Shown in pieces: positions 6,525 through 25,216 of a DNA stretch of 64,000 nt (its first letter is position 1; each line of letters begins with the position of its first letter). This DNA is from Candidatus Bathyarchaeota archaeon (GTDB taxonomy: Archaea > Thermoproteota > Bathyarchaeia > Bathyarchaeales > Bathycorpusculaceae): positions 32,001 to 96,000 of the forward strand of contig CAVYHV010000022.1 of assembly GCA_963768425.1 (NCBI GenBank), in the 5' to 3' direction. The position numbers and the translations under genes are program-made. A model generated the notes under the pieces. That model did no database searches. It was not told the DNA's origin and saw nothing but the letters and a program-made list of their open reading frames with translations.

Positions 6525-6751
6525 CTAAAACAGCCCCATTGAGAATAGGTTACAGTGCCTAATAATGGCTACTCTACAGATCAGACAGCCATATCATTGG
6601 GAGCTAACCCAAAAACATGCCAAGAAAATAGTGCGTAATTGCTAAACAGCAACAAAACAAAGCAAATGTTACTTGTAAAAAGCCTATAAGAAAAAAAGAG
6701 TCTCAATAACCAAGAGAAAAAAGGAGAGAAGTAAGCTATCGGTATTTTTTG

Positions 6752-7369: not shown

Positions 7370-7523
7370 ATTTCACTAAGAACTGCTAGAAGGATTTAAC
7401 TATTTCTAAGCCTTAAAACTAGCAATTTACGCGTCGGCGATCTTGGAGTTGTTTATATCTTGATTTTGTTTTCATCGCAAAGCAACACTTTTTTGGAAAC
7501 AATAAAAAATAAACCGCTGAAGT

Positions 7524-9996
7524 TTGCCATCAACCCTCGAGGCGTTTGAGATGAACGCTTGCTTTGACCCTAACTGCGCTAGGATAGATTCAAGTTATTG
7601 CCTTTTCGGGGCTGAAGCGCTCAAGAAGCTTCTTTCAACTATTGAAGCACAAATAGGCGGAGTCGAAAAAAACGAAGACATCGAATACCTTCACAGAATG
7701 CGTGTAACTTCACGTAGAATAAGAGCAGCCATGCCGCTTTTCAAAGAATGTTTCCCAAAAAAACGCTACAAAAAATGGATAAACGAAATCAAGAATGTAA
7801 CTCAGTTCCTAGGCACCGCCAGAGATTTGGATGTCCAGATCTTGTTCATAAAAGACTACATTCAACAACTTCAAGAAACGGATCCTAAAAAGGGAATCGA
7901 GGCTTTGCTTGAAGCGCACGTTAATCAAAGAGCAGGTCTACAATCCAGCATAACTAATGGACTTGAAGAGCTTAAAAAGTCAAGAGTCCTACAGCAAACG
8001 GCAAGTTACTGCGAACAAATCGTAAAAGAATCAACCTGCACACCCTTCAATTTGTTCTCGGTTCGCGAAAAAGCCTTCTGGCAAATATCATCCAAACTAG
8101 ACGCTTTTTTAGCCATGGAGGAGTGGATCCATAAGGAAAACGAAATCCTCAAACACCATGAAATGCGGATCCGAGCTAAATGGCTCAGATATACCTTGGA
8201 AGCGTTTGCACCGCTGTATGAGCAAGAACTTTCTGAAGAAACAAAAATGATGAAGAATTTTCAAGACATTCTTGGCGAAATGCATGATTGCGACGTATGG
8301 ATTGATGGTATTCCAAAATTCATTGAGGAAACACGAAGGAAAACGGCAATAATCCCAGAAAACGAGCAAGCAGCTGCTGATCACAACCAAGATCTTTTAA
8401 GCTTCCTCGATTTTATTAAAGAAAAAAGAAAAAGTCGTTATCAAAAATTCGTCAGTTTCTGGGACGAAAACAAAAGCAAAAACGCCTTAGAGGAATTAAG
8501 GAAAAACGCGAGCGCCGGCTTTACAGCAGCGGAACATAGAACTAAAGAAGAACTGACAAATCCATACGTCAAAATTGGTGTAATTGCGGACATTCATGCA
8601 AACCTAAATGCTCTTGAAGCTGTTTTTGAAGATGCCAAACGTCGAGGAATAACCGTTTTCTTAAATGCGGGTGATTTAATAGGGTTCGGGGCTTTTCCTA
8701 ACGAAGTAGTTGAAGCCCTATACTCGAAGAATGCTTTGAGCGTGATAGGAAATCTGGATCTTGAAATTTTGGACAAGAACAAGAAGGGCAAAGGTATCCA
8801 AAAATTCTCTATAGAATTCGCCAGAAAAGAGTTGAAAAAATCTTACGAGACTTATCTTCGCGCCTTGCCTTTCAAACTCGAGCTTGAAGTCGCTCATAAG
8901 AAACTTCTTATGATTCATGGACCTCCCAACGCGGTTGACGAACATTTGTTCGATGATACGCCAATCGAAAGATTTCAGGAAATAGCAAAAACCGCGAACG
9001 CGGACATATTTATCTTTGGGCATTCGCATGATCAGTTCACAAAAGAAGTTGACGGAGTCTTGTTCATCAACCCGGGCAGCGTGGGAAGACCTGGGGATGG
9101 AAACCCTCAAGCCGCCTACGCGGAGATTACAACTAACCCCTTTTCTGTTGAGTTAATTAGAGTTAATTACGATGTGGAGGCAGCGGCTGATGGTTTGAGA
9201 AGAAGGGGCGCTTCTGAAAGTTATGCCCAAATGCTGCTCCGGGGGTTATCATTAGATAACATAATCGCGGAAGACAAAACCAAAGAACACGATATGGAAG
9301 AAAAGTGCGTTGAGATAACCAGAAGTTGCCAAACTATTTCGCAAATCTATTGGCCAGGATTTTAAGCATGCAGAGCAAGTAAGAAAGTTATCCATGGAAC
9401 TCTTTGACTCCCTGCAAGATCTGCATAAACTCGACAGGAGGGAACGGTGCTGGCTAGAATGCGCTTCAATTCTTCACGACATCGGCCTGGCACGGGGACC
9501 AAAGGCACACCAAAAGAATACACTAAAACTTATTCTAAACGAGACAAAGCTGCCTTTTACCTCAGGAGAGAGACAGGCCATAGCGAACGTAGCGCGATAT
9601 CATCGCAAGAGTTGCCCAAAAAATAAAGACTATGACTTCAAGTCGCTTAGCACTGAATTGAAACGGAAAGTCAAGATTTTAGCGGGCATTTTGCGTTTGG
9701 CTGACGGTTTAGACTTCTCTCATCAGTCAATAGTTCAAAGAGTAGAAGCCCACTTGGCTTTCGAGTACGTAACTATTGAAGCGATTGCGCTTTTAAGCCC
9801 TGTTGCAGAAGAGTTAGCTGTAAACAAGAAAAAAGAAATGTTTGAACAGTTCTTCAGAAAGAAAATTTTGCTTGCGTGGAAGCAGGCCAAACCCCTTCAA
9901 CAACAAACAAGCGAGCAAGCAGGAACGATATCACAAGAGCCAATCCCTTCAACCGATGGAAACTTGATTACACAAACCGACGGCAAAATCGATTGA
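7524..9996 (+). CDS. CHAD + metallophosphoesterase + HD fusion (copy 2); one extra G at about 9357 splits it into 7524-9365 and 9394-9996
   Basis: Collinear paralogue of 1701-4058 (HRMRVTSRRIRA, ADIHAN, GNLD, GHSH, NPGSVGRPGDGNPQAAYA, SILHDIG); removing one G gives WPDFKHAEQVRKLSMELFD. Confidence 0.88.
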
Positions 9997-10068
9997 AACC
10001 AGTCAGCCAAACTAACGCAGTAGCGTTTTTAGCCTAGAACAAACTACTCAGAAGATGAGGCTACTGAA

Positions 10069-11206: not shown

Positions 11207-12286
11207 TTGCCTAAAAACTACACTTACACCGACGCGGGCGTAAACCGGCAACAACGCGTCGAGTCAAAAAAAGTCCTAAAAGACCTGCAGGAAACCTACA
11301 AGCATAGCCACTTCGGAAACGTGATGCGCCTGCCATATGGCAACATCTTTCCAGTTGGAGAAAACACCTTTTTAGACCTTGTTATCGAAGGAGTGGGCAC
11401 CAAAGTTCTTCTGGCACAGATGGCGGGGAAATATGACACTATAGGCGTTGATGCGGTGGCGATGGCGGTGAACGATGTCATCCGTTCAGGAGCAAGACCA
11501 CTTGCAATAGCCGACAACATTCACGCGCAAGCCAGCGAACCACGCCTCGTAAGAGAGTGGCTCAAAGGAATCATTCAAGGCGCTGCAGAAGCAGAATGCC
11601 CAGTTACAGGCGGCGAAACAGGTGACGTCGCAGAAATAATAAAGGGTCTTGTCGACAACGCCGGCTTTGATATGGTCGTTGCCTCGGTCGGCACGGTTGA
11701 AAGGGAAGAAATCATCACTGGTGAAAACATCAAGCCAGAAGACCCAGTAATCGGCTTACCAAGCAGCGGATTGCATAGCAACGGTTTAACAATGGTTAGA
11801 AAAATCCTGTTCAAGCAGTGGGGAGGAAAATACATGCCGAACGATATTCCGGAAGGTTTGGAGAGGGAAGTCGTGCTTGAAACGTTGGAGCCGACAAAAA
11901 TCTATGTAAGGCCGCTTCTCAAAGTAGCGAAAAAGGTCAAAGTCAAAGCGGCAGTCCACATAACCGGCGACGCCTACATGAAATTCAACAACTTGGCAAA
12001 TTATTCGCCGGGAATAGGCTTCGAATTTACCAACTTCAAACCGCAACCTATCTTCGCACTAATCCAAAAAACCGCATCCGAACTAGGCTACTGCATTTCT
12101 GATGAGGAAATGTTCAAAACCTTCAACATGGGATGGGGCTTCGGAATAATCGTTGATAAATCTGAAGCTGACAAAGCCATGAGCATGCTAGAGCAAGAAG
12201 GCGCAAAGCCTGAAATTATAGGCAAAGTGACAGGGAAACAAAATGTTGAAATAAAGCACAAAAACAAAAAGCTTGTTTTGACGTAA
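11207..12286 (+). CDS. purM: Phosphoribosylformylglycinamidine cyclo-ligase (AIR synthetase)
   Basis: YTDAGV, EGVGTK, AMAVND, GGETG, SSGLHSNG, HITG, TFNMGWG. Confidence 0.93.
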   Translation: MPKNYTYTDAGVNRQQRVESKKVLKDLQETYKHSHFGNVMRLPYGNIFPVGENTFLDLVIEGVGTKVLLAQMAGKYDTIGVDAVAMAVNDVIRSGARPLAIADNIHAQASEPRLVREWLKGIIQGAAEAECPVTGGETGDVAEIIKGLVDNAGFDMVVASVGTVEREEIITGENIKPEDPVIGLPSSGLHSNGLTMVRKILFKQWGGKYMPNDIPEGLEREVVLETLEPTKIYVRPLLKVAKKVKVKAAVHITGDAYMKFNNLANYSPGIGFEFTNFKPQPIFALIQKTASELGYCISDEEMFKTFNMGWGFGIIVDKSEADKAMSMLEQEGAKPEIIGKVTGKQNVEIKHKNKKLVLT

Positions 12287-12345
12287 AGTTTTGCGTTTTT
12301 TATGTCGAAAGCGTTTAAATCTTGAAGCATAATTTAAAGAATTTT

Positions 12346-12594
12346 ATGAAATACCGAGCGAAAATCGAAGTAAGCCTCAAACCAGGCCACAGCAACCCTG
12401 AAGGAGAAACAACAGCCCGTCTGCTGAAGGAACTCGGCTACAAAGTAGAAGCTGTGGAAGTAAGCAAACTCTACATAGTCTCGCTTGAAGCTCAAACGGC
12501 TAAAGAGGCAAATGCCAAGGCGGAAGAAATGAGCAAACGGCTCCTCGCAAACCCAACCAAAGACAACTACACCATCATCCTTGAGGAGCAATAA
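12346..12594 (+). CDS. purS: FGAM synthase subunit PurS
   Basis: LKPGHSNPEG, LLANP; between purM and purL. Confidence 0.92.
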   Translation: MKYRAKIEVSLKPGHSNPEGETTARLLKELGYKVEAVEVSKLYIVSLEAQTAKEANAKAEEMSKRLLANPTKDNYTIILEEQ

Positions 12595-14978
12595 TGAACT
12601 CTAACATTTTCCACCCATGCAAAACAAATTATGCTCTCTACGAAGCAGTCTTAAAAGAAGCTAGCGATCAGCAACTCGCCGAACTCAATAATGAATTGGC
12701 CTTGGGATTGAGCCTTGAAGAAATGAAAAGTATCCAAGACTACTTCAAAGCAGAAGGCAGAAACCCAACTGACGTGGAGCTTCAAACCATCAGCCAAACA
12801 TGGTCCGAACACTGCTACCACAAGACCTTCAAAGGAAAAATCCTTCTCGACGGCAAAGAAATCGACAGCCTCTTCAAAACCTACATTGCAAAAGCGACCA
12901 AACAAATCAAAGCACCTTGGTGCTTTAGCGTCTTCGAAGACAATGCAGGCATCGTCCGCTTCGACCTTGGCTACGGCATAGCCGCAAAAGTCGAAACCCA
13001 TAACCACCCCTCTGCCGTAGAACCCTTCGGCGGAGCAGCCACTGGAGTCGGCGGCGTAATCAGGGACATATTAGGCGTGTGGGCTGATCCGATCGCATGC
13101 ACAGACGTTTTAGGCTTTGGACCGCTCGATTACGATTACAACAAACTTCCGGCAGGCGTGAAACATCCCAAGTACGTTTACATGGGCGTCACCGCGGGCA
13201 TAAGCGCCTACGGAAACAACATGGGGATTCCAACAGTCAACGGAGCAATTTACTTTGATGAAAGCTACACAGGCAACGTCACCGTATACTGTGGATGTAT
13301 AGGACTTCTTCCCCTTGCAAAATTTACAAAAAATGCCAAGCCAGGGCACATTTTGGTTTTGGCAGGTGGAAAAACTGGACGTGACGGTATTCACGGCGTA
13401 ACATTTGCCTCAGCGGAATTGACTGAGAAATCTGAGGAAATTTCTCGACCGGCTGTCCAAATTGCCGATCCAATTGAAGAAGAGAAAGTGAAAAGGGCGA
13501 TAATTGATATTCGCGATCTTCAACTTGCTTCCGCGACAACTGACCTTGGCGGAGGGGGATTATCATCGGCGGTAGGGGAAACAGCGGAGCGGTTCAACTG
13601 CGGAGTAACCATCGACCTCGCCAAGGTGCCGCTGAAGCATATTGGTTTGGCTCCGTGGGAGGTTTACATTTCAGAATCCCAAGAAAGAATGCTCATAACG
13701 GTTCCTCCTGAAAACCTGGAAAGGGTTATGGAGGTTTTTGAAAAAGAAGACGTGGAAGCAACGGCAATTGGCAAACTCACAACTGAACGTCGTCTGAAAC
13801 TCAATTTTAACGGCGAAAAAGTTGGTGACATGGATATGGCATTCCTGTTTAATCCATGCAGCAGCATGAAAACAGCCAGCATCGAAACTCAAACATTCGT
13901 CGAACCCCAATTTCCTGCTCCCGAGAGCTTCACCGATACTCTGCTTCAGTTGCTTGCCGCGCCTAACATCGCCAGCAAAGAAAGCGTCATACGCACATAT
14001 GACCATGAAGTTAAAGGTAACACGACACTAAAACCTCTTCAAGGAGTGTACGCTGGACCAAACGATGCCGCCGTACTCAAACCGCTTGACAATTCATGGA
14101 GAGGTCTCGCGATTTCCTGCGGCATGAACCCGAATTACGGCAAAATTGACCCATACTGGATGGCGGCTTCCGCGATTGACGAGGCGGTTAGAAACAACGT
14201 TGCTGTTGGGGGAAGAAGGATCGCTTTGCTTGATAATTTCACTTGGGGTAACCCTGAGAAGCCAGAGCGTTTAGGCTCATTGGTTCGGGCTTGTGAGGCA
14301 TGCTATGATTTCGCCGTCGAGTTTAAGACGCCATTTATCTCGGGAAAAGACAGCTTATACAATGAATCCCCGATGGGTCCCATAACGCCCACACTGCTAA
14401 TTACAGCTGTAGGCATAGTTCCCAACCTTCAATTCGTCACTTCTATGGATCTGAAGTCGCCAGGTAACTTGCTTTACATTGTAGGCGAAACCTTCAACGA
14501 ACTCGGAGGCTCAGAATACTACAAGCTCAAGGGCTACTTGGGATCAAGCGTTCCAAAAGTTAAAGGCGCCAAAGCCAAACGCACATTCAGAGCAGTAACC
14601 AAAGCCATAGATTCAGGCTTAGTCAGGTCATGCCATGACCTCTCCGAAGGTGGGTTGGCGGTCGCGGCTGCGGAGATGGCGTTTGCGGGCGGCTATGGTT
14701 TGAACTTGGATTTATGCAAGGTGCCTGGCAAAGGTCTGGAGCGCAACGATTTCGTGTTGTTTTCTGAGTCGAATAGCCGATTCCTGCTGGAAGTGTCAGA
14801 GCGGGACAAAGAAGACTTTGAGGCAAAAATGAAAGATAAGCCCTTCGCTCAAATCGGCACGGTCACTAGGGAAGAGCGGCTTGTCATTAACGGGTTGGGC
14901 AAGAAAATGGTTGTCGACGCTTCAATTGCAGAGTTGCGGAAAAGCTGGAAGAAAACGTTCGGGGTAGAAACAAAATGA
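12594..14978 (+). CDS. purL: FGAM synthase subunit PurL
   Basis: WSEHCYHK, KVETHNHPSAVEPFGGAATGVGG, DLGGGG, SESQERM, HDLSEGG, FSES. Confidence 0.97.
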   Translation: MNSNIFHPCKTNYALYEAVLKEASDQQLAELNNELALGLSLEEMKSIQDYFKAEGRNPTDVELQTISQTWSEHCYHKTFKGKILLDGKEIDSLFKTYIAKATKQIKAPWCFSVFEDNAGIVRFDLGYGIAAKVETHNHPSAVEPFGGAATGVGGVIRDILGVWADPIACTDVLGFGPLDYDYNKLPAGVKHPKYVYMGVTAGISAYGNNMGIPTVNGAIYFDESYTGNVTVYCGCIGLLPLAKFTKNAKPGHILVLAGGKTGRDGIHGVTFASAELTEKSEEISRPAVQIADPIEEEKVKRAIIDIRDLQLASATTDLGGGGLSSAVGETAERFNCGVTIDLAKVPLKHIGLAPWEVYISESQERMLITVPPENLERVMEVFEKEDVEATAIGKLTTERRLKLNFNGEKVGDMDMAFLFNPCSSMKTASIETQTFVEPQFPAPESFTDTLLQLLAAPNIASKESVIRTYDHEVKGNTTLKPLQGVYAGPNDAAVLKPLDNSWRGLAISCGMNPNYGKIDPYWMAASAIDEAVRNNVAVGGRRIALLDNFTWGNPEKPERLGSLVRACEACYDFAVEFKTPFISGKDSLYNESPMGPITPTLLITAVGIVPNLQFVTSMDLKSPGNLLYIVGETFNELGGSEYYKLKGYLGSSVPKVKGAKAKRTFRAVTKAIDSGLVRSCHDLSEGGLAVAAAEMAFAGGYGLNLDLCKVPGKGLERNDFVLFSESNSRFLLEVSERDKEDFEAKMKDKPFAQIGTVTREERLVINGLGKKMVVDASIAELRKSWKKTFGVETK

Positions 14979-15797
14979 AGCAGGAAGAAATCAAAGCCTG
15001 TGTCATGCGCGTCGGCGGAACCAATTGTGACGCTGAAACACAGCGAGCTTTCCAAGAGTTAGGCATTCAGGTTGATGTCCTGACACGTAAACGAACTGGT
15101 GAAACTGCATAACCTACTTGATTATCAAGTGCTGATTTTCCCAGGCGGCTTCTCTTTTGGAGATTACGTGCGTTCAGGTGTAATTTTTGCAAGGCATCTT
15201 AGCGCGAAGTTAGGCAAAGAAATGGAAACGTTCATCGACGAAGGCAGACCAATTCTGGGTATATGCAACGGCTTCCAAATAATGGTTGAATACGGTTTGC
15301 TACCGGGATTCAAAGGTGTAAGTTCATATCCAGAAGCCACATTGACGACAAATGAGCCTGCAGGCTTCAAGTGCCAGTGGATTTACCTTAAACATGAAAA
15401 CCGCGGAAAATGCGCCTTCACAAATAAAATCGCTCCTAACAAAGTGCTTCGAATGCCTATTGCCCATGGGGAAGGCCGGTTGCTTTTCCCGAAAGAAAAA
15501 GAGGAAGCGTTGCTGGCAGAACTCGTCGAAAACGACATGGTTGTTTTCCGTTATTGCGACAATGACGGCAACGTCGCCGACGGAAAATACCCAGTTAACC
15601 CAAACGGGTCATTCTACGACATCGCTGGCATATGCAACAGAGAAGGTAACATATTCGGACTGATGCCTCACCCAGAAAGAGCCATGTTCTGGTGGCAGCA
15701 ACCCGATTGGACGCAACAACAACAGATGCCTCACTACGGGGATGGAAAACTAATCTTCCAAAGCATAATCGATAGACTAACCAAAAAATGCCCTTAG
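14975..15797 (+). CDS. purQ: FGAM synthase glutaminase PurQ; +1 frameshift near 15082
   Basis: MKQEEIKACVMRVGGTNCDAET from 14975 joins PGGFSFGD, GICNGFQ, AHGEG, NPNGS, GLMPHPER. Confidence 0.93.
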
Positions 15798-16694
15798 ATC
15801 TTCTGAAGAAGGCAAACCCGCGCGAGCACCCATCTGCGCGACGCATCTTGAAGCAACAAAATTGCCGAAGCGCCCGCATTCGAACAGGCTTTTCTCTTTG
15901 ATTAATCCGTAAAGAAATCCAGCGCAGAAAGCATCCCCTGCACCAGTTGTGTCGACTACTTTAACTTTGAAAGGCTCAATTCTCAGCCTTTCCTCCCCAT
16001 CCGTGACGTAGCAGCCCTTTTCCCCGAGCTTGACCGCGACAATTTTGACTCCTGCATCAAGCATCAAATCTGATGCTCTGCGGATATCAGGTTCTCCGGT
16101 TAAAAGTTCAAGTTCGCCAATATTTGGCATCAAAATGTAGGAGCTTCGAATTATCGGCTCTATAGCCGCAAAACCTTTCTGTGCATACAATGAACCAGGG
16201 TCAAAGCTGATTTTGACATTTGTACTTAATGCGCCTAAGAGCTTTTTTTGCGCCCGAAAAGATTTCTCACCAACAAAGGATGAGTAATGCAGAAACTTCG
16301 TTTCAGAGGGGTATGTGTAATTGATTTCCCGAGGCTCAATCGTGTCGTTGACGCCCGGATTGACGTATAGTGCTCTTGCGCCTTTCTTGTCTACGAATCC
16401 TAAGACTGAACCGCTTTTTCCATGCTTAGCCTGAATTATACCTGCCGTGTCGACTCCTTCAGTTTTGAAACAGTCAATTTGCAGTTTGCCTTCCCTGTCA
16501 TCCGCCACTTTTCCGATGAAGCCAACTTTGCAGCCTAGTCTTGCTAACCCAACTGCAGTGTTGGCCGCTGAGCCGCCGCAGGATTCCTTGTAATCTTCAA
16601 CGAAGCTTTCTTCCTCCGCGCCAGCCAATCGTTCAACTTTCAGAAGGGTATCAACGTTAAGCGCGCCGAAACCTACAAAATCAAATTTTGTCAC
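15777..16694 (-). CDS. PfkB/ribokinase-family kinase (EhaT-like)
   Basis: GGSAANTA, FDPG, PN, KLGEKG, DTTGAGDAF; 4-bp GTGA overlap with the Ftr-like gene. Confidence 0.92.
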   Translation of the reverse strand: MTKFDFVGFGALNVDTLLKVERLAGAEEESFVEDYKESCGGSAANTAVGLARLGCKVGFIGKVADDREGKLQIDCFKTEGVDTAGIIQAKHGKSGSVLGFVDKKGARALYVNPGVNDTIEPREINYTYPSETKFLHYSSFVGEKSFRAQKKLLGALSTNVKISFDPGSLYAQKGFAAIEPIIRSSYILMPNIGELELLTGEPDIRRASDLMLDAGVKIVAVKLGEKGCYVTDGEERLRIEPFKVKVVDTTGAGDAFCAGFLYGLIKEKSLFECGRFGNFVASRCVAQMGARAGLPSSEDLRAFFG

Positions 16695-17599
16695 GAAAAT
16701 AACTCCTTCAAGTTAATTTTGTGATCGCCCAATTTGCCGCCGTAGTTTCCCGCGGAAACCTTCATCATCCCATCAACATCAAGCACAGCTTCGATTCCTA
16801 CCTTGGTTGCCCGCTTTACCGCGTCTAAAGAGACCCCGTTAAAGACTATTTCGGCTATGTAGCCCACGCCGTCGGGCACAAGGGATTCTTTGCCCAACTT
16901 CTTCTTAAGGGATGGACAGTAAAGGTGATTTGTAGTGGGTCCAATCTTGGGAAAATGGGTTTCTGGTTTAGAACCCGCTGAGCAAACATCGAAGGGTGTG
17001 ACAACGCCAGACAATTCGTGTATTGCAACTAAGGCTTTCTCACCCGCAGACTTTAGAGCTTGTTTGGTTTTACAAAGAACCCAAAAATTGCCGCCCATAA
17101 CCCCGCGAGCGTAGCCAAGGTAACGTTCAATCACGAAGTCTGGAACCATCAATGGAACCACGATTACTTCTCTACCGAACCGTTTTTCAACCCACTCATA
17201 ACCATCGCCGCAGTGTCCAACAGTCTCCATCAGGTCCAGTTTGCCCTCAGGGTTTGGCAGGGCATCATAGACGGCAGTGAAGGGCTTAACTAAGATGTCT
17301 TGGCGGATGCGGTAAGAAAGTTCAGTCTCGAATTTCTTTACGGATTGTTCAAAGGTTTTTTTAGGGTTGATTTCTCCCCAGAACTGCAGCAGCACACCCA
17401 AGCGTTGGTCTGGGGTTTCCTTTTGACTGAGATATCTTTCAACTCCGCCCTCTGTTCTGCCGATTACAACAGAAGGGGTTGCCGTCGAATCCTCAGCCGC
17501 CTTACGCAGGGTTTCCTCGTCGTCGGCGGTAACAATTACACGACAAAAAAGTCCAGTAAAAGCCTCAGCGTACGTGTCATCTATCTCCAGTTTCGCCAT
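16691..17599 (-). CDS. ftr: Formylmethanofuran:H4MPT formyltransferase-like protein (Ftr paralogue, EhaS/FtrII-like)
   Basis: IDDTYAEAF, ETPDQRLG, GGNFW, SAGSK, TTNHLYCPSL, EIVFNG, SAGNYGGKLG; divergent core RIRQDILVKPFT; ATG 1 nt after the upstream stop. Confidence 0.88.
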   Translation of the reverse strand: MAKLEIDDTYAEAFTGLFCRVIVTADDEETLRKAAEDSTATPSVVIGRTEGGVERYLSQKETPDQRLGVLLQFWGEINPKKTFEQSVKKFETELSYRIRQDILVKPFTAVYDALPNPEGKLDLMETVGHCGDGYEWVEKRFGREVIVVPLMVPDFVIERYLGYARGVMGGNFWVLCKTKQALKSAGEKALVAIHELSGVVTPFDVCSAGSKPETHFPKIGPTTNHLYCPSLKKKLGKESLVPDGVGYIAEIVFNGVSLDAVKRATKVGIEAVLDVDGMMKVSAGNYGGKLGDHKINLKELFS

Positions 17600-17600
17600 A

Positions 17601-18683
17601 TCACCCGAGTTTCCCAACTGCTACTCCTCGCACTTTCTTTCTAAACTCGCTACTTTCTTTTATTAGTATTTCCATGTTTTGGTCTGTCACTATTTTCGCT
17701 TTGGGCAACGCATCAGGATACAACTGCGAAAGCTGTTTGAGCAAAGAAGAGTCAACTTCGCTGTTGTTGAGGATTTCGTAACTCCAACCTTGAAGAGTAT
17801 TGAGAGCTTTTTCTTTCCCGAATCTGCAGAACAAATCTGCAATAACAGCTGTGACAAGGCTACTTTCTGACAAAACCGCGACTTCGGCGTTTCTAACAGC
17901 ATACCCGTTGCCGTTGAAGGAAACTGTTAATCCGCCGCTCTCGCGCACCAGCCTGAAGGCTTCCACGTCGGTGATGCTGTCACCAACGTACAAAACTTCT
18001 GATAGTTCTGAGCCCAAACGTTTCACTGTATCTCGAATTGCCTCAGCCTTTTGTTCCCCACCGACGGTTACGATGTCTGTGAGGAATTTGCCGACGAACA
18101 TCTTTGGGATTAAACTCCAGAAGATCTCATCCAAGCGTTTGATAGCTTCTTGATCAACAAATGAGAAATCTTCGATGGTTCTTGCAGATGCAGAAATATC
18201 TATTAAGGGCATTTTTGCGATTTCTTGGGCTACCTGTTTTAGGCGGTCTTTTTCGTGGGGGGTGATTCCGCATTTGTCGAGTTTAAGTTTGGTGCAGTAG
18301 GTATTTTTGTATGGGAAATCTGTGGCTTTGCAGAGTGCTTTGATGTAGTGTTCGTAGCTGGTGCTGACGATGAATGCGTCGGCGATGTCTTGCACATGGT
18401 TTATTGTGGTTTGGCTGTTGGCGATTAGGAGAATGTTGTCGGCGGAGAACTCGTCCATCTGCTTGTCTGAGAGGCTGTACGCTTTGAAAAAAGGCAAAAT
18501 AAGCTTCAGAGTGCTTCCAGCGGAGTAGCACGGTTTGTGCAGAACATCAGCAAGCACGTCGTCGTACTTGCTTATGTTTGTGAATAGCTTGTCGCCGTTG
18601 GGAATAAAATTCGCGGCTAACTCGAAGGCATTATCGTTTTTGCTTATTGGTCCCTCGCAGTCGGAAATGAACACACGTTTCAC
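17601..18683 (-). CDS. HAD-superfamily hydrolase, EhaR/COG4030-like
   Basis: SDCEGPISKNDNAFE (motif I), IVSTSY (II), K, YVGDSITD (IV), SFNGN; 4-bp overlap with the purD stop. Confidence 0.85.
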   Translation of the reverse strand: MKRVFISDCEGPISKNDNAFELAANFIPNGDKLFTNISKYDDVLADVLHKPCYSAGSTLKLILPFFKAYSLSDKQMDEFSADNILLIANSQTTINHVQDIADAFIVSTSYEHYIKALCKATDFPYKNTYCTKLKLDKCGITPHEKDRLKQVAQEIAKMPLIDISASARTIEDFSFVDQEAIKRLDEIFWSLIPKMFVGKFLTDIVTVGGEQKAEAIRDTVKRLGSELSEVLYVGDSITDVEAFRLVRESGGLTVSFNGNGYAVRNAEVAVLSESSLVTAVIADLFCRFGKEKALNTLQGWSYEILNNSEVDSSLLKQLSQLYPDALPKAKIVTDQNMEILIKESSEFRKKVRGVAVGKLG

Positions 18684-20095
18684 GCTTTGCCCCTCAAACT
18701 CTCCATGTGCCTGACCGCTTTAGCGATATGCTGCTTTGAGGCGACATCAGTTCGGCTCCACAACCCGCCGCCACTGATTGCCCGAGTACCTTCAAGGCTT
18801 ATGCTGCGTGCTTCCTCGATGTTCGCCCCTATGCCTAAAACACCAACGGCGCGGGATTTGAGCGCGAAGTTTTTGCCATCCCTCGTCTCCATCGAGCCGG
18901 GGTAGACGCGGATACGGTTGCCGTATTTCTTAGTGAGTGCCTGGGCTTTCGACAGATCAACTGAAGTGTTAGCCTCCTCCTTGTTGGCTTTGTTCGGGAA
19001 GGCTTCCGCGTAGCCTCCGTACTCAAGCGGGACTTTATATGTTAAAACTGACGCGGCATTCTCCATTTTGACGCTTGTCAAGTTTCCTTCTATCATATTG
19101 AAGCAGACGTCGACAAAGTCGTCTTTGATTAGCGCGAGAAGATTGATGATTTCTGGATCTCCTGGGCGACTGTTGTTCTCGAGAACTTTGATACCGTGGC
19201 CTGTATGCATAAAGGCAAGGTAGAGCGGGATACCTCTAAGGGCGGAGTCATCTTTGATTTTGGCTTTCCATCCTTTGAAAATCTTATTGGCCAAGGTGAG
19301 CTCCTCTTCGCGTTCAGCCGCAGTTAGAAAAGGCATTTTGTCGTCAATGTCCTTGTATGAGCCCATGCCTCCCGTGTTCGGGCCACGGTCGTCGTCAAAG
19401 GCACGTTTGTAATCGCGCGTGTCTGGAAGGGCAACGAAATGCTTGCCATCGCAGAACGCCATGAAACTGGATTCTTCCCCATCAATTTTCTCTTCGATTA
19501 TTACGCTGCCATACCTGAAGTTGGACATAAAATGCTCAAAAAGTTCCCCGCGGTTAGCGAAATGGTCGCCCCAAACGCCCACACCTTTCCCAAGTGCCGG
19601 TTTATCAGGTTTAACGACAGCCTGATTATCAAGTTCATCAAGCCAACGCCAAACAGCGCCCTTAACATCTCCAGATTCCTTGTACTCAGTGGGGCTGAAA
19701 ACTTTGAACCGCGGGTTTGCTTCCGGCGCAATCTCGTCGAAAAGGACGCGCTGCTCCACTTTGCTTACTTCTATGGCGTACTGTTGCTTTGGGCAGATAA
19801 CGGGTATGCCTGTTGATTTTTCAATTTGGTCGCGGACGCCGTCTATTATGGGTTTTTCTGACCCGACCAGGACGAAGTCGATTCTGTCTTTGTTTGCTTG
19901 GGCGAATTTGCATATCTCCTTCACATCAAGGCTAGGGATAACGGCGTGTTTTGAAGCTTTCTCAGCATTGTAGGAGTTGCGTTGTTTATCAGCGATATAG
20001 AGTTCCACTTGGTAACGTGTGCTTTGCAGCAACGCGTCGACCATGGCGACCTCTCTTGCACCGTAAGAAATTACGAGTACGCCTATTTTCTCCAT
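18680..20095 (-). CDS. purD: Phosphoribosylamine-glycine ligase (GAR synthetase)
   Basis: GARE, GKGV, IEEKIDGEE, DYKRAFDDDRGPNTGGMG, ENNSRPGDPE; probable ATG at 20095. Confidence 0.95.
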   Translation of the reverse strand: MEKIGVLVISYGAREVAMVDALLQSTRYQVELYIADKQRNSYNAEKASKHAVIPSLDVKEICKFAQANKDRIDFVLVGSEKPIIDGVRDQIEKSTGIPVICPKQQYAIEVSKVEQRVLFDEIAPEANPRFKVFSPTEYKESGDVKGAVWRWLDELDNQAVVKPDKPALGKGVGVWGDHFANRGELFEHFMSNFRYGSVIIEEKIDGEESSFMAFCDGKHFVALPDTRDYKRAFDDDRGPNTGGMGSYKDIDDKMPFLTAAEREEELTLANKIFKGWKAKIKDDSALRGIPLYLAFMHTGHGIKVLENNSRPGDPEIINLLALIKDDFVDVCFNMIEGNLTSVKMENAASVLTYKVPLEYGGYAEAFPNKANKEEANTSVDLSKAQALTKKYGNRIRVYPGSMETRDGKNFALKSRAVGVLGIGANIEEARSISLEGTRAISGGGLWSRTDVASKQHIAKAVRHMESLRGKA

Positions 20096-20142
20096 AATGG
20101 TTACACCTGTAACTGCAAGCGGCAAGAAGGTTGAGGGTTGTG

Positions 20143-21627
20143 CTATTCTTTGGGTTGGGCTTCCTCGGTTTCATAGATTCTTGATTTTTCCTCGTAGCCT
20201 TCAAGGAACCTCTTTTTCATAGCGTCAGCCATCTTTTGAGCACAGGGCGTTGGGTACTTGCCTGTGATGCAGGCCATGCATAGTTCATTTTCTGTTTGAC
20301 CTGTCGCCTTGATCAATTCTTCAATCGACTGATAGCACACTCTGTCTGCACCGATGATTTTGGCGATTCCTTCTGCATTGTGCTTGGAACCGATGAGTTG
20401 CCCGTAAGTTGACATATCAATGCCATAGAAACAGGGGCCAATGATTCTTGGGAACGTGACGAATACATAGACTTTTTTGGCTCCTGCCTTTCGGAGCTTG
20501 TCTATTATGACTTTTGTCGTGTCTCCCCGGACTATGCTGTCCTCGGTTATTATGACTCGTTTTCCGTCTACTTTGGAGCCTAGAATGTTGATTTTCTTGT
20601 CGATTGTTGAGAACCGCTCGGTGTTAAGAAGTATAAACGCGCGTTCAGTTACGTAGCGGTGCCGTCTGGAAGCCCGCTCCCATCGCAGTCCTGAGGCTTC
20701 ATGGACTCCCATAGCGGGGTCGTCGCCTGTCTCAGGCACGGACAGGATTATGTCGCTGTCTTGAACCACCTCTGGAAACTCGCGAACGATGTTCCTCCCA
20801 AAGTCCTCGCGGATTTCATAAACATATTTGCCGTCAAACCTTGAATCTGGCCTAGCAAAATAAGCATATTCAAACGCACAAAAAGCTGGACGAGGCTTCT
20901 CGATGAGTTGCATGCGTTTGAATCCGTCTTTTGAAGCAGTAACCAACTCGCCTGGGTTCAGTTCGAAGTCCCGTAAAAAGCTGTTCATGTCTAACCCAAC
21001 AGTTTCAGAGCAGAATGCAAACGTTGCTCCTTGCGGGTCGTGCCCAGCGCAAAGGGGTTTTATTCCGTGAGGGTCTTTGAAAGCGAAAAAGTCGCCGTCG
21101 CCCGTCAGCCCAGTTACGGAGAATGCGCCGTCAAGGCTTTCCATAACGGACTTAACCGCTGATGCCAAGTCTTTTCCCTGTTTAAGTCCCAGGAGCAGTT
21201 TGTGGCAGACGACGTCTGAGTCGCAGTTGAAGTAGAAGTCAGAGAAGTTTTCAGTCATTTCTCTTTTGAGAGGCAACGTGTTGACGATGTTGCCGTTGAA
21301 TGACAAAGCTAGTTTTATGTTGCCTGAGGATGCATAGACCGGCTGAGTGCCTTCGACGATTGAAGTGTCGTCGCATTTGCCTGAAGTTGTGTATCGCACG
21401 TTGCCGATGCCTACTGGACCGGGCAGACGGTCAAACCATTCATGTATCGCCTCATTTCTGAGGCGGGGAACTAAATCGAGGCTTTTGTAAACGTGAAACT
21501 TGTTGTCGTAGGTTAAGAAGCCGTGGGATTGGTGTCCTCGATGGTTTTGGGCGCGGAGACCCCAATATACATATGGGAAGACCGTTTGGTTTTCAAAGTT
21601 TTTTGCTCCGAAGATACCGCAGCCTAT
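20143..21627 (-). CDS. purF: Amidophosphoribosyltransferase; N-terminus extends beyond the track ORF, no canonical start codon (ATA at 21627)
   Basis: In-frame CGIFG...QNHRGHQSHG...GNVRYTTSG, FNGN, CAFEYAYFARPDS, EDSIVRGDT, PCFYGID, CMACITG. Confidence 0.95.
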   Translation of the reverse strand: MGCGIFGAKNFENQTVFPYVYWGLRAQNHRGHQSHGFLTYDNKFHVYKSLDLVPRLRNEAIHEWFDRLPGPVGIGNVRYTTSGKCDDTSIVEGTQPVYASSGNIKLALSFNGNIVNTLPLKREMTENFSDFYFNCDSDVVCHKLLLGLKQGKDLASAVKSVMESLDGAFSVTGLTGDGDFFAFKDPHGIKPLCAGHDPQGATFAFCSETVGLDMNSFLRDFELNPGELVTASKDGFKRMQLIEKPRPAFCAFEYAYFARPDSRFDGKYVYEIREDFGRNIVREFPEVVQDSDIILSVPETGDDPAMGVHEASGLRWERASRRHRYVTERAFILLNTERFSTIDKKINILGSKVDGKRVIITEDSIVRGDTTKVIIDKLRKAGAKKVYVFVTFPRIIGPCFYGIDMSTYGQLIGSKHNAEGIAKIIGADRVCYQSIEELIKATGQTENELCMACITGKYPTPCAQKMADAMKKRFLEGYEEKSRIYETEEAQPKE

Positions 21628-21836
21628 CTTTTGTCCCTTCTCGCCTTGATTGGGGATGTAAGTGAAAAAAGGGGTTTATCAGCTTTTAGTACATATTTAG
21701 CTCAAAAGCATGGCTTTTTGACATTTTTAAGGTTTAAAGTAAACAAGAAGCGGGAAGTGTTTTTTGGGCGTAGAATTTTGTTGTTTGTGTTTTGAGCTGG
21801 ATTCTTGATTTAGGCTTTGAGGCGTTTGCAGATTGC

Positions 21837-21911
21837 GACTCAATTTGACTCTGTTTGACTCCTTGTGACTCCTAACGACTCCAAACGACCCAATTTGACT
21901 CTAATTGACTC
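21837..21911. repeat. Array of 8 GACTC-core units at exact 10-bp period
   Basis: GACTCAATTT GACTCTGTTT GACTCCTTGT GACTCCTAAC GACTCCAAAC GACCCAATTT GACTCTAATT GACTC. Confidence 0.9.
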
Positions 21912-22556: not shown

Positions 22557-23978
22557 TTATGGCTGCCATTTCTCTATGAGATATTTGGGTATCTCGCTGC
22601 TGTCGCGTGGCCCGACGAGGACTTTCCAGCCGCTGAGTTCTTCGATCTCGCCGCTGATGCGTGATGCTTTGCCGGGGATTATGATTTTGCGGTGTTTGAC
22701 TTTGCTTTCTATGCCTGAGGCTTTGATTGCGTCGGCTACGCGTTCCGCGGTTAGTTTTCTTCCTGCGACTCCGCTATCGATTGCTGAGCCTTCAGTTTCA
22801 ACCACGATTAGGTACGCGTTGAGTTTGCTGCTTTCGATGTCTGAAGCGACTGTATAGTATGTTAAGGCGAAGTTTGTGGTGAACATTACTGGCGAGTTTT
22901 CGTCTGGAGTTCCGAATACTTTGAGTCCTGGAGCTACTGCAACGGGTTTGCGTGGGTCAGTGTAAATGTTCTGTCTGAGAACTGTGTCTGGCAACAGTGA
23001 CCAGCCGCTTACACTATGCATTACAAGTACGTCTGCATACCGCACTATGAGCATTCCTGCTAGGTACGCTTCACGCCATTTCAAGAGGTCTTCAGCTGTT
23101 GCTGTGTCTTCCCAAGCAACCATAGGTACGCCGATTAATGGGAAGCCTGCTAATTCTTCGCCTTCTTTACATGCAGCTCTGCGAAGCATCGTGAAGTTGT
23201 TGATTGTGTCTGGTAAGCCTTCGTGTGGGAAGGTCCCTGGGTCTAAGACCAAGTCGGTTACTCCGTAAGCCATCAACGTCTTTGCAAGTGAAACCAACGT
23301 GGTTAAGTCGTTTGGCGCGGACACAACTAGAGGGGCATCATACATCAATGCAAGTTCTGCCATGTCTTTCCAGTTGCTCTGAGTTGCTGCATAAAGCAGC
23401 GGTCGCGCTTTGGGTGCCGCCATCAAGCCTGCCTCTGCAATTGCAGGGTTCAGGGTGCAGAGTATAAGTGGCAGTTTAGTTATTTCCTCGACTTTTTTGA
23501 CAACAGCCTTGAATTTGTCTGCGTCGCCGGATGTGCATCTTACTGCAATCATATCCAATCTGAGTGTGTTGCCGATGTATTCGAATGTAAAGTTCTCTGT
23601 GTACTGTACTCGCGAGACAACTTCTTGCATTGGCATTTCGTCAGTTACATCTAAGGCGATGGCTGTGGGGTTCTTGTAAGTGAATTCGTGGCGGTACATG
23701 ACAAGTTTGCCGCCAAGTTTCTTAGCTTTATCGCCAGCGCCCACAGTAACTTCTTTTATTGCGGGTTTAAGTAGATCCTGAAGTGCAGCGTAGGCTTTTG
23801 CATTTTCTGGTTTTAGCAGTGGTTTGCAGCTATCGAGTTCTACTTCGCGGTTAACGATTTTTGTCGCAAACGCCATGCAGTTGTCTTGACCGCATTCTTT
23901 GCAGTTTGTTTTTGGTAGAAGCTTGTAAATGGTTATTGGGCTTAATTCTTTTAGTCCGCCTTTCTTTTTCTCGCTCAT
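22557..23978 (-). CDS. cdhE: CODH/ACS complex gamma subunit (corrinoid Fe-S protein, large)
   Basis: LPKTNCKECG..CMAFA, IYTDPRKP, TTNFALTY, VLVGPRDSS; probable ATG at 23978. Confidence 0.95.
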   Translation of the reverse strand: MSEKKKGGLKELSPITIYKLLPKTNCKECGQDNCMAFATKIVNREVELDSCKPLLKPENAKAYAALQDLLKPAIKEVTVGAGDKAKKLGGKLVMYRHEFTYKNPTAIALDVTDEMPMQEVVSRVQYTENFTFEYIGNTLRLDMIAVRCTSGDADKFKAVVKKVEEITKLPLILCTLNPAIAEAGLMAAPKARPLLYAATQSNWKDMAELALMYDAPLVVSAPNDLTTLVSLAKTLMAYGVTDLVLDPGTFPHEGLPDTINNFTMLRRAACKEGEELAGFPLIGVPMVAWEDTATAEDLLKWREAYLAGMLIVRYADVLVMHSVSGWSLLPDTVLRQNIYTDPRKPVAVAPGLKVFGTPDENSPVMFTTNFALTYYTVASDIESSKLNAYLIVVETEGSAIDSGVAGRKLTAERVADAIKASGIESKVKHRKIIIPGKASRISGEIEELSGWKVLVGPRDSSEIPKYLIEKWQP

Positions 23979-25216
23979 TGCTTGCCAACCCCTTGTGCTT
24001 TCATGGTTATCCAATCTGCGTATTTCGATGCATCTGCTTTTTTGCCGCTTGTCAGGTAGTTTGTGACGTCTTTGAGCGTCTTTACTGCTGCTGGATGCAT
24101 CATCATGAATAAGTCAACGCCTGCGAGCAGAAGTGTTAAGGCAGTGGTTACTTCCCAGAGTGGTCCTCGGAGTTCGCGTGGTTCCCAGTCAGCTGACATT
24201 TTCAGCCATGCTTCACGGGCAGCCCATGCGTTGGTTGTGCCGGAAGACATTGGGTGAGCAAGTTCCATGTCGCCCATTAATCCGCCGAGTCGTGCTCGCT
24301 CCATGTTGGTGAATGCGTAGTCTAAGCCGTATCCTAAGGCTGCTGTAGTTAAGTCCATAACGATGTCTTCTCTGCCGAGAAAGTCGTATAGTCTCCGGTT
24401 AAGTTCCCGTGCCAGGTTAAGGTCCATCGGAGTGAACGAAAGTGCAGCATGCCCGTTTTTCTTGACGAACTTTGCGCAGCGTTCAACATCCATATCCCTT
24501 GTTATTGAGCTTATTAGGAAACGTTCTCCTGGGAAAGCGTTACAGATTTCTTCGAAAACGTTTGCGTCTTTAACTGGGTCGCCGCAGCCGCCGATAACTA
24601 GTGGTACGTCAACGGCTTGCAGAACTTTTTCAACGGTTTTCACTGCGTCTTTCGGTGTCGCGTTCTTGAGCAAGGGGTCAATGCTGATTAAGTGGATTGT
24701 AACCATGTCGGCCTTGAATTGTTGTACTGCAAGTTTCGCCCAAGCTGCTGGATCTCCAACGACGTCCTTAACATGCATCTTGACTGCTTTGCTTAGGGGT
24801 ACTTCCATGTCGAAAACGTCAAGGGTGATGACTGGTTTGTGTGTGGTTGGTCGCTCAAAATTGTAGAATGCAGGTGATGTTTCGCCGCCGATGGTGAATG
24901 AGGTTCCACGTGTGCCGCCTTCTTTTCGTGTTGCGCCTAATTTGACTTCCGCGATTTTGTTCGGGTAGGTTTCAATTGGGGGTAAGAATGGTACTTGAAG
25001 CATTGATACAGGTTTTCCGCCTGTGACTACTGCTGGAAGCTTTAGCTTGGGCATTATTTGGCCAGCCATTCCTGGCTCAAAGAGTATCTCTAGCTCTTTG
25101 ACGTCAATCTGGAAGTCTTCGAGTTCAATTTGCTTGAACCTGGCTAAGGCATCCAGTAGATCTTGGCTGAGCTTTAGACCTTCGTTGTCTTTCTTCTTGT
25201 CGCCGTCTGTGGGCAA
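23975..25216 (-). CDS. cdhD: CODH/ACS complex delta subunit (corrinoid Fe-S protein, small)
   Basis: GATRKEGGTR, DLTTAALGYGLDY, NAWAAREAW, MMMHPAA. Confidence 0.95.
   Translation of the reverse strand: MPTDGDKKKDNEGLKLSQDLLDALARFKQIELEDFQIDVKELEILFEPGMAGQIMPKLKLPAVVTGGKPVSMLQVPFLPPIETYPNKIAEVKLGATRKEGGTRGTSFTIGGETSPAFYNFERPTTHKPVITLDVFDMEVPLSKAVKMHVKDVVGDPAAWAKLAVQQFKADMVTIHLISIDPLLKNATPKDAVKTVEKVLQAVDVPLVIGGCGDPVKDANVFEEICNAFPGERFLISSITRDMDVERCAKFVKKNGHAALSFTPMDLNLARELNRRLYDFLGREDIVMDLTTAALGYGLDYAFTNMERARLGGLMGDMELAHPMSSGTTNAWAAREAWLKMSADWEPRELRGPLWEVTTALTLLLAGVDLFMMMHPAAVKTLKDVTNYLTSGKKADASKYADWITMKAQGVGKQ

Follow-up and report, generated by a model that had tools for sequence, protein, structure and literature searches.

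A purD-linked paralogue of the formyltransferase Ftr as a candidate for the missing glycinamide ribonucleotide formylation step in Bathyarchaeia and other archaea

Organization of the locus

In this work, we analyzed a 64,000-nucleotide stretch of DNA from Candidatus Bathyarchaeota archaeon (positions 32,001 to 96,000 of contig CAVYHV010000022.1, assembly GCA_963768425.1; hereafter the window), and specifically three genes that follow purD, the gene for glycinamide ribonucleotide (GAR) synthetase, on the minus strand. They encode, in this order, a HAD-like, EhaR-like protein (HADl; 17601-18683), an EhaS-like protein with the FTR and FTR_C domains of the Ftr formyltransferase family (Ftr2; 16691-17617), and a ribokinase-like, EhaT-like kinase of the PfkB family (15777-16694; Pfam PfkB, 188 bits). 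We refer to them as the triad and evaluate them as candidates for the conversion of GAR into formylglycinamide ribonucleotide (FGAR), the step for which PurN and PurT are the known enzymes.

The purD gene occupies 18680-20125, with a likely start at the ATG at 20095 that yields a product of 471 amino acids (homologues have 461-485, with one short call of 395); its GARS_N and GARS_A domains are clear in Pfam and GARS_C is weak. Together with purF (amidophosphoribosyltransferase; 20143-21627, minus strand), it forms a minus-strand run, purF-purD-HADl-Ftr2-PfkB, that converges on the plus-strand genes purM (11207-12286; Pfam AIRS/AIRS_C), purS (12322-12594; PurS), purL (12594-14978; FGAR-AT_linker) and purQ (15099-15797; GATase_5), the 3' end of purQ overlapping that of the PfkB gene by 21 bp. 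The three junctions downstream of purD had been described as a 4-bp overlap, a 1-nt gap and a 4-bp overlap, and direct reading of the sequence bears this out: the TGA of purD and the GTG of HADl share the tetranucleotide GTGA, the TGA of HADl is followed by one base and the ATG of Ftr2 (likely start at 17599, giving 302 amino acids, as in most homologues), and the TGA of Ftr2 overlaps the GTG of the kinase gene. The proximity of a cdh operon, about 1 kb beyond purF, was likewise correctly noted, cdhD (22557-24014, minus strand; Pfam CdhD, 426.8 bits) being the first gene of the carbon monoxide dehydrogenase/acetyl-CoA synthase cluster upstream of purF. Eha genes are absent from the window, as had been stated, and tblastn places Eha-like hydrogenase genes only on two other contigs of the assembly, C15 and C6.

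The missing step of the purine pathway

The original prediction started from a cluster with purF, purD, purSLQ and purM and with neither PurN nor PurT, which Pfam and TIGR searches of both the window and the genome confirm. Across the whole assembly (2.96 Mb in 33 contigs, 91% complete), PF00551 (Formyl_trans_N, PurN) gave 0 matches, and PurT was not found, the best TIGR01142 score being 52.7 bits against a cut-off of 502. Formyl_trans_N and PurT-type ATP-grasp domains are also absent, by Pfam, from HADl, Ftr2 and the PfkB kinase themselves. The genes purD and purF are present in single copy in the genome (tblastn), and a second pur cluster on contig C6 (100223-103398) contains purE, purC and two tandem purP paralogues. 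As the remainder of the purine pathway is present and PurN and PurT are not, a GAR formyltransferase is needed.

The PurD protein of the window is divergent, with a TIGR00877 score of 234.9 against a cut-off of 288. In Ftr2-bearing Bathyarchaeia, the protein is long (about 470 amino acids) and scores 235-267 bits, below the NCBIfam cut-off (267 in genome G451), in comparison with about 370 bits in Bathyarchaeia without Ftr2. In an Asgard genome, however, the PurD encoded beside the same triad (locus L073) is canonical (GARS_N 88, GARS_A 190 and GARS_C 89.5 bits).

Ftr2 is a divergent paralogue of Ftr

Ftr2 is full length and has both lobes of the family (FTR, 149.8 bits against a cut-off of 27; FTR_C, 178.1 against 25). 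It passes the model NF002554 (334.2 bits, cut-off 297) and falls below the cut-off of the canonical equivalog TIGR03119 (229.4 against 292.6). The concern that it might be the only, canonical Ftr of this organism can be set aside: a canonical ftr lies on contig C17 (188.9 bits with the family model, against 151.7 for Ftr2), the two proteins are 36% identical, and Ftr2 is an extra copy in a separate clade. In a quick-search tree of 96 Ftr proteins, from which 38 near-duplicate bathyarchaeal loci were left out (36 of L009-L045, plus L025 and L072), the C17 copy falls into one clade with the Ftr1-type copies of Archaeoglobaceae and the FhcD-type proteins of planctomycetes, and the branch that parts this Ftr1 clade from all Ftr2-like sequences has an SH-aLRT support of 100 and a length of 0.44. 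A profile built from seven Ftr2 sequences separates both types in 48 genomes (Ftr2 at least 327 bits, Ftr1 at most 279). The closest relatives of the window protein belong to metagenome-assembled genomes (MAGs) of Bathyarchaeia/Bathyarchaeota, with 82-96% identity among many Bathyarchaeia, and public annotation labels Ftr2 as Ftr.

With respect to the solved Ftr structures (1FTR/2FHJ, 1M5H and 1M5S) and bacterial FhcD, Ftr2 shares the two-lobe FTR/FTR_C architecture and the length, is roughly 35-40% identical to the solved proteins (E=6.7e-53), and has in common with them the glutamate and many core motifs. Its Glu256, which we take to correspond to Glu245 of Methanopyrus kandleri Ftr, is invariant in 48 Ftr2 and 35 Ftr1 sequences. 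The glutamate that stabilizes the tetrahedral intermediate/oxyanion is Glu252 in FhcD (PMC6926001). The motifs TPDxRxG, GDG, GSK and TN are also kept in Ftr1 and Ftr2 alike. In contrast, about 14 positions are fixed differently in Ftr2 and 8 in Ftr1. Residues G22, P48, W80, E99, G134, C182, I225 and G226 are fixed in Ftr2; R105 stands where Ftr1 has Gly, C136 where it has Phe (35/35), I152 replaces Trp, A214 Ser, P227 Ala and P255 Tyr, and the sites of these Ftr2-specific replacements show 86-100% fixation in Ftr1. Judged from the alignments, Ftr2 looks like a paralogue whose chemistry was kept and one of whose substrates was changed. Furthermore, Ftr2 is always accompanied by a canonical Ftr in the genome, and its genomic partners are pur genes, HADl and PfkB, not fwd or mch.

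Some additional observations were made on this family. Ftr2 has three cysteines, C136, C182 and C212, that do not vary among 27 triad-linked sequences and a fourth, C234, that hardly does, whereas Ftr1 has Phe at position 136 and Ala or Gly at 182. A search at E<=1e-30 brought up no long fused form of Ftr2, a finding of little weight; the fused Ftr proteins found among representatives carry FwdA-like or FwdC-like parts, are of the canonical type and were discarded as a clue to Ftr2.

The HADl and PfkB partners

HADl matches the HAD models of Pfam and NCBIfam weakly, with scores below the curated cut-offs. Its closest solved relative is AF1437 of Archaeoglobus fulgidus (PDB 1Y8A; E=1.6e-28), a protein without an assigned function in the literature searched, and the same structure is the nearest fold to an alignment-based AlphaFold model of HADl (pLDDT 95.1; TMq 0.77), followed by the phosphoserine phosphatases (SerB) and ThrH at a TMq of about 0.45. 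Across 28 homologues, D8-x-E10-G-P, S107/T108, K212 and G234-D-S-I-T-D239 (GDSITD) are invariant; D8-x-E10, S107/T108, K212 and GDSITD presumably represent HAD motifs I-IV. Motif I is a DxE variant, with Glu in place of the second Asp, as is known from enolase-phosphatase. By these motifs and by its modelled fold, HADl belongs to the HAD superfamily, is subfamily IB-like and is a predicted phosphatase. Compared with AF1437, it has an additional conserved C-terminal tail, FRKxVRGxAxGxLG (17601-17660); in 27 of 28 sequences the protein terminates with the final residue of this tail.

The kinase has ribokinase TIGR02152 as its top NCBIfam match (171.7 bits against a cut-off of 299.65) and remains under the cut-off of all 25 NCBIfam families scored, none of the equivalogs being reached. 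The solved structures closest to it are ribokinases, and it contains N13-V-D15 and D-T-T-G-A-G-D, which we take to be the sugar-binding and catalytic motifs.

Distribution of Ftr2 relative to PurN and PurT

The presence of each protein was called with thresholds of our own choosing (Ftr2, 1e-90; PF00551, 1e-10; PurT, 1e-70; PfkB, 1e-45) in samples of species representatives, many of them MAGs. The expected anticorrelation with PurN/PurT was found to be strong in both samples, 201 Halobacteriota and 121 Bathyarchaeia. Among the Halobacteriota, the phylum of an anaerobic methanotrophic (ANME) genome of the ANME-1 type (genomes at least 85% complete), 79 carry Ftr2 only, 112 carry PurN and/or PurT without Ftr2 (100 PF00551 only, 10 PurT only and 2 PF00551 plus PurT), 4 carry both and 6 none. 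Among the Bathyarchaeia, the figures are 49 with Ftr2 only, 52 with PurN and/or PurT without Ftr2 (46 PF00551 only and 6 with only a PurT-like match of 239-303 bits, under the cut-off), 1 with both and 19 with none. At the family level, Ftr2 and PF00551 are nearly all-or-none in Bathyarchaeia: families f1, f3, f5, f6, f7, f13, f20, f21 and f26 have Ftr2 in 36/36 genomes and PF00551 in 1/36, and families f8, f9, f15, f18 and f29 have Ftr2 in 0/44 and PF00551 in 38/44. When the genomes from which the loci described below were derived were examined, 44 of 48 had Ftr2, and 38 of these 44 lacked PurN and PurT (6 had PF00551, 0 PurT). In Methanobacteriota, Ftr2 was found in 149 of 151 genomes, and neither PurN nor PurT was found in the three Ftr2-bearing ones tested.

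Exceptions within families point in the same direction: one Archaeoglobaceae genome without Ftr2 carries PurT (465.6 bits), and an f2 genome without Ftr2 also lacks PurD. In addition, five of the six Halobacteriota with none of the enzymes still have HADl and PfkB, which suggests that Ftr2 is missing from those five through assembly gaps, and four of the 10 such Bathyarchaeia tested are without PurD.

The partners follow Ftr2 closely. HADl occurs in 78 of the 83 Halobacteriota genomes with Ftr2 and in 9 of the 118 without it, the complete triad in 75 of the 83, and Ftr2 without either partner in none (0). A HADl profile had 0 matches in five Bathyarchaeia with PurN or a PurT-like protein and without Ftr2, in a search that had no positive control.

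Gene neighborhoods across archaea

A scan of Ftr loci with one genome per species gave 80 loci, 67 of them of the Ftr2 class. The coupling of the triad to purD recurs beyond this genome: 42 of the 67 loci, mostly from Bathyarchaeia and with Ftr2 identities down to 63%, have HADl and PfkB next to Ftr2 and in its orientation, and 36 of these 42 also have purD adjacent (31 of them purF too). Three cases are independent of the main bathyarchaeal block: (i) L046, from a distant bathyarchaeon, with purL-purQ-purM-purD-HADl-Ftr2-PfkB on a single strand, (ii) L073, from the Asgard archaeon Candidatus Borrarchaeum, with purF-purD-HADl-Ftr2-PfkB-purL-purQ-purM on a single strand and canonical PurF and PurD, and (iii) L066, in which Ftr2 adjoins purP and purM. 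In L073 the triad occupies the position that purN would have, and the gene order is the proposed reaction order. The synteny with pur genes foreseen for triad-bearing genomes was thus met with in Bathyarchaeia and in one Asgard genome.

The order ehaR-ehaS-ehaT at the end of the Methanothermobacter eha operon, which the original prediction had brought forward, also holds. In two loci of the Methanobrevibacter type (L049 and L052), the triad comes after genes for the NiFe-hydrogenase small and large subunits and two polyferredoxins, and one source names a HADl homologue 'energy-converting hydrogenase A subunit R'. EhaR, EhaS and EhaT are homologous to HADl, Ftr2 and PfkB and have the same order; they differ in that the triad of the window follows purD and, in this genome, does not close an eha operon. 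The record of L052 is titled Bacteroidaceae, yet the contig has hydrogenase genes of the eha type together with a triad resembling that of Methanobrevibacter, and it is probably mis-binned. Two Halobacteriota genomes show the order HADl-PfkB-Ftr2.

Where Ftr2 is not linked to its partners, its neighbors vary (classic HAD, divergent PfkB, phosphofructokinase, fructose-bisphosphate aldolase, fructose-bisphosphatase, Mtd, Mnh/Mbh-type subunits), and this heterogeneity led us to reject a single alternative function deduced from them. In two complete Halobacteriota genomes (L093, G283, 8749-9911; L094, G260, 8939-10022), Ftr2 is 73-74% identical to that of the window and has beside it a piece of the HADl C-terminal region, frameshifted in L094, with an N-terminal PfkB fragment on the other side in L093; full but distant homologues of HADl and PfkB are encoded elsewhere in both genomes. 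The arrangement suggests that Ftr2 was acquired from a cluster of the Bathyarchaeia kind, and the small HADl-C-terminus-like reading frame was dismissed as a clue to a gene fusion, being a remnant of the transfer.

Discussion

The absence of a recognizable GAR formyltransferase from some archaea, which the original prediction mentioned, is documented and has been acknowledged since at least 2011 for Methanobacteriales, Archaeoglobales, Methanopyrus and ANME-1 (PMC3261824), and again in 2022 (PMC9012536). According to the relevant part of PMC3261824, purN and purT were not found in two Archaeoglobi, four further species and M. kandleri; these four are called Methanomicrobiales there, and the species named are Methanobacteriales. 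The same source describes Methanothermobacter thermautotrophicus as a purine prototroph and calls the results of purine labelling 'inconsistent', as C8 derived from C2 of acetate in Methanosphaera stadtmanae and not in Methanobrevibacter smithii. For ANME-1, PMC9012536 reports the absence of PurN and PurT and an 'as yet unidentified' enzyme, which the sections concerned do not connect with Ftr2, although it lists Ftr2 in ANME-1, ANME-2a/b, Archaeoglobales, M. kandleri and Methanothermobacter and gives the Ftr1 versions as the only Ftr characterized. The lineages in which the formyltransferase is missing are among those for which Ftr2 is listed. M. stadtmanae, which cannot interconvert CO2 and methyl groups, has kept the upper C1 enzymes, as is thought, for purine and amino-acid metabolism (PMC7374477). 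A formyl donor from the pool of methanofuran (MFR) and tetrahydromethanopterin (H4MPT) would reconcile the labelling data, if serine fills this pool in M. stadtmanae and CO2 does so in M. smithii. No paper was found in which Ftr2, EhaS or AF1437 is given a role in making purines, nor one that combines GAR formyltransferase with methanofuran, in a literature search that fell short of most subscription journals; neither PMC10579436 nor PMC11915815 was found to deal with this step.

Taken together, the gene linkage, the distribution and the divergence of the paralogue make it probable that Ftr2 supplies the GAR-to-FGAR formylation from the methanofuran/H4MPT C1 pool. The triad would then be a folate-independent substitute for PurN/PurT. 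Ftr2 would transfer the formyl group of formyl-methanofuran or N5-formyl-H4MPT to the primary amino group on the glycinamide part of the PurD product, yielding the formylglycinamide unit that PurL requires. This would be normal Ftr chemistry making use of the conserved Glu, with H2N-CH2-C(=O)-NH-ribose in place of the H2N-CH2-furan head. The arrangement that we judge the most likely of those considered, and put forward tentatively, is a shuttle in which HADl would strip the 5'-phosphate from GAR, Ftr2 would formylate the resulting glycinamide riboside and the PfkB kinase would rephosphorylate the formylated riboside to FGAR. The Ftr reaction lies close to equilibrium (+4.4 kJ/mol from formyl-H4MPT to MFR; PMC6926001), and the transfer to another primary amine should for that reason be about isoenergetic; the shuttle would cost one ATP, as PurT does, and render this near-isoenergetic transfer irreversible. 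All three proteins would find a use in it, one after the other as their genes follow each other from purD to purL in L073, and it plausibly fits the gene order as well as the joint inheritance of the triad. Of the original prediction, the part that sees in the triad a module for GAR formylation is thus favored by the synteny, the anticorrelation and the second Ftr, and the route through dephosphorylation and rephosphorylation stands as plausible only.

A number of observations weigh against this interpretation. The entire case for a purine role of Ftr2 is comparative genomics, and formyl-H4MPT is not believed to be a formyl donor (PMC3261824). Fisher tests of Ftr2 against PurN/PurT give 3.7e-43 in Halobacteriota and 7.3e-17 in Bathyarchaeia, values that ignore kinship and therefore overstate the support, the within-family contrasts being more telling. 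Ftr2 and PF00551 occur together in 4 of 83 Halobacteriota, 1 of 50 Bathyarchaeia and 6 of 44 locus genomes, the last including three Promethearchaeota with deep-branching Ftr2-like genes, and two Methanobacteriota genomes lack Ftr2, PurN and PurT altogether. Six of the 10 Bathyarchaeia tested with none of the enzymes do have PurD; one of them, G451, is resolved by the presence of purF-purD-HADl-Ftr2 cut by a contig end, and another, G401, encodes a 454-amino-acid ATP-grasp protein with a weak PurT_C match between purD and purE. The PF00551 proteins of Bathyarchaeia families f8, f15 and f18 have about 230-360 amino acids and 55-93 bits and often cover profile positions 1-153 only; such low-scoring proteins may not be PurN. 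The Methanobacteriota triad lies in the eha operon, away from pur genes, and neither HADl nor PfkB adjoins Ftr2 in 25 of the 67 loci. As regards the shuttle itself, HADl-PfkB pairs are found, adjacent, in four Halobacteriota genomes that have PurN and lack Ftr2, which would be difficult to explain if both proteins served an Ftr2 shuttle and nothing else. To our knowledge, a phosphatase-kinase detour is without precedent in purine synthesis.

These same HADl-PfkB pairs are among the reasons to consider, as a possibility that we hold with reserve, that Ftr2 alone formylates GAR and that HADl and PfkB form a separate co-inherited module acting on a riboside, a ribose phosphate or the nucleotide pool. 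HADl and PfkB form the more closely knit unit in Halobacteriota, Ftr2 often lies apart from both of them, and in L093 and L094 Ftr2 arrived with mere fragments of its two neighbors; moreover, Arg105 of Ftr2, where Ftr1 has Gly, could bind the phosphate of GAR, and no ATP would be wasted. However, no sampled genome has a partnerless Ftr2 and 75 of 83 have both partners, HADl is nearly confined to Ftr2 lineages (9 of 118 others), the triad genes are translationally coupled in the window, and purD-HADl-Ftr2-PfkB-purL in L073 is the order of the shuttle. A further explanation, which we regard as rather unlikely, dispenses with purines: the triad would act on C1 carriers or in an energy-converting hydrogenase, and its complementarity to PurN/PurT would merely mirror the folate lineages. 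The genes ehaR, ehaS and ehaT are indeed co-transcribed with eha in Methanothermobacter and treated as hydrogenase subunits to which no role is assigned (PMC3087415), the triad ends an eha-type cluster in L052, Mnh/Mbh-type subunits come after Ftr2 in L062 and Mtd adjoins it in L071, and the presence/absence pattern is largely at the level of clades. Nevertheless, two phyla have the triad embedded within pur operons, a third group has Ftr2 as a neighbor of purP and purM, eha genes are missing from the window, and the pattern holds within families, as seen in the Archaeoglobaceae genome with PurT and the f2 genome without PurD. Besides, lineages that have only PurT also lack Ftr2, so that folate status alone is insufficient.

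The remaining explanations appear far less probable. That Ftr2 is a second isoenzyme of canonical Ftr, with the same substrates and another regulation or direction, would agree with its score above the NF002554 cut-off (334 against 297), its catalytic Glu and core motifs and its public annotation, but we consider it improbable: it is only 36% identical to Ftr1, its clade is separate, old and strongly conserved, its replacements fall at positions nearly fixed in Ftr1 (86-100%), and both the pur linkage and the anticorrelation with PurN/PurT would be left unexplained. In addition, ANME transcribe Ftr1 more highly (PMC9012536). Still more remote is a supply of precursors, with HADl as the missing phosphoserine phosphatase (serine giving glycine and C1 units) and PfkB as a ribokinase feeding phosphoribosyl pyrophosphate. 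Phosphoserine phosphatases are the nearest folds to HADl after AF1437, no serB scores above its cut-off in the genome, and PfkB is closest to ribokinases; against this, the similarity to the SerB fold is low (TMq about 0.45), HADl is not among the matches to the serB profile, and housekeeping roles would neither track Ftr2 nor vanish from PurN/PurT lineages. Least probable of all, in our judgment, is that Ftr2 formylates free glycine and that a divergent PurD ligates N-formylglycine to phosphoribosylamine, giving FGAR with no GAR involved. The low TIGR00877 scores (234.9 in the window and 267 in G451, compared with about 370 in genomes without Ftr2) and the weak GARS_C would be accounted for, but the Asgard triad locus has a canonical PurD, HADl and PfkB would be left without a role, and nothing else supports the idea.

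Returning to the role of the triad in GAR formylation, its likeness to PurN and PurT would be one of functional analogy. Like them, it would convert GAR into FGAR as its net reaction, it has their place in the pur operon (L073), and the distributions can be called mutually exclusive, though some genomes carry both. In contrast, sequence and fold are unrelated, the donor of PurN/PurT is formyl-tetrahydrofolate or formate instead of the proposed formyl group of MFR/H4MPT, and the triad may need two accessory enzymes. A precedent for folate-independent purine formylation in archaea is PurP, the 5-formaminoimidazole-4-carboxamide ribonucleotide (FAICAR) synthetase that uses formate and ATP, of which this genome has two copies; it differs in that it belongs to an ATP-grasp-like family and serves the C2 step, through which free formate enters the purine ring (PMC3087415).

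The lineages with the gap synthesize their own purines, and the triad, the strongest candidate for it so far, offers a precise, testable set of genes. It is possible, and no stronger wording seems justified, that the shuttle constitutes a third, evolutionarily independent route to FGAR, in which C8 would come straight from the C1 carriers of the Wood-Ljungdahl and methanogenic pathways; with a similar degree of doubt, this route might extend to Methanobacteriales, Archaeoglobi, ANME-1, many Bathyarchaeia and some Asgard archaea. If this were true, there would be a third, non-homologous class of GAR formyltransferase and a new function in a known enzyme family, purine C8 would be tied to the methanofuran/H4MPT pool of folate-free archaea, and EhaR, EhaS, EhaT and the structural-genomics protein AF1437 would acquire a function. 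Thousands of automatic 'Ftr' annotations would be corrected, and metabolic models of methanogens, methanotrophs, Bathyarchaeia and Asgard archaea would improve. Furthermore, Eha is described as an anaplerotic source of reduced ferredoxin (PMC3585446), and it is tempting to speculate that it replaces the formyl-methanofuran withdrawn by purine synthesis; should the shuttle exist, this would explain why the triad lies on the eha operon and provide a rationale for the anaplerotic role of Eha.

Other features of the locus and of related loci

The HADl-PfkB pairs of Halobacteriota (L098-L104, L095 and L097) recur with parts of a conserved neighborhood. A gene for aspartate-semialdehyde dehydrogenase (Asd) lies upstream of the pair in three loci, and downstream come an amidohydrolase with adenosine-deaminase-like features (two loci), Usp and CBS proteins (Pfam, one locus) and a class II tRNA synthetase (two loci); the other loci match this arrangement by the size of their open reading frames (ORFs) only. 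The neighborhood Asd-HADl-PfkB-amidohydrolase-Usp-CBS-tRNA synthetase may reflect relatedness only.

In the window, the canonical-start ORF of purF covers 20143-21399, and its TIGR01134 alignment begins at profile position 71. The upstream in-frame reading, K-I-G-C-G-I-F-G, reaches the catalytic Cys, with an ATA at 21627-21625 as the probable start. In the window (21399-21640, minus strand), as in L007-L014 and L021, there is no ATG, GTG or TTG ahead of the catalytic Cys; L008-L012 have a stop codon two codons ahead of the Ile, and L015 and L040 have Met at that position. From these reading frames, it looks like purF has a conserved non-canonical ATA start.

Further upstream of purF, about eight GAGTC-containing units are spaced at roughly 10-12 bp between 21830 and 21930, where Tandem Repeats Finder reports a match at 21867-21893 with a period of 10; these units may be a regulator-binding array. 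Finally, two loci from Bathyarchaeia without Ftr2 (L106, G401, 7326-9853; L107, G418, 6681-9225) have two tandem purF-like genes beside purD, which recall the PurF/PurF' pairs described for Crenarchaeota (PMC3261824).

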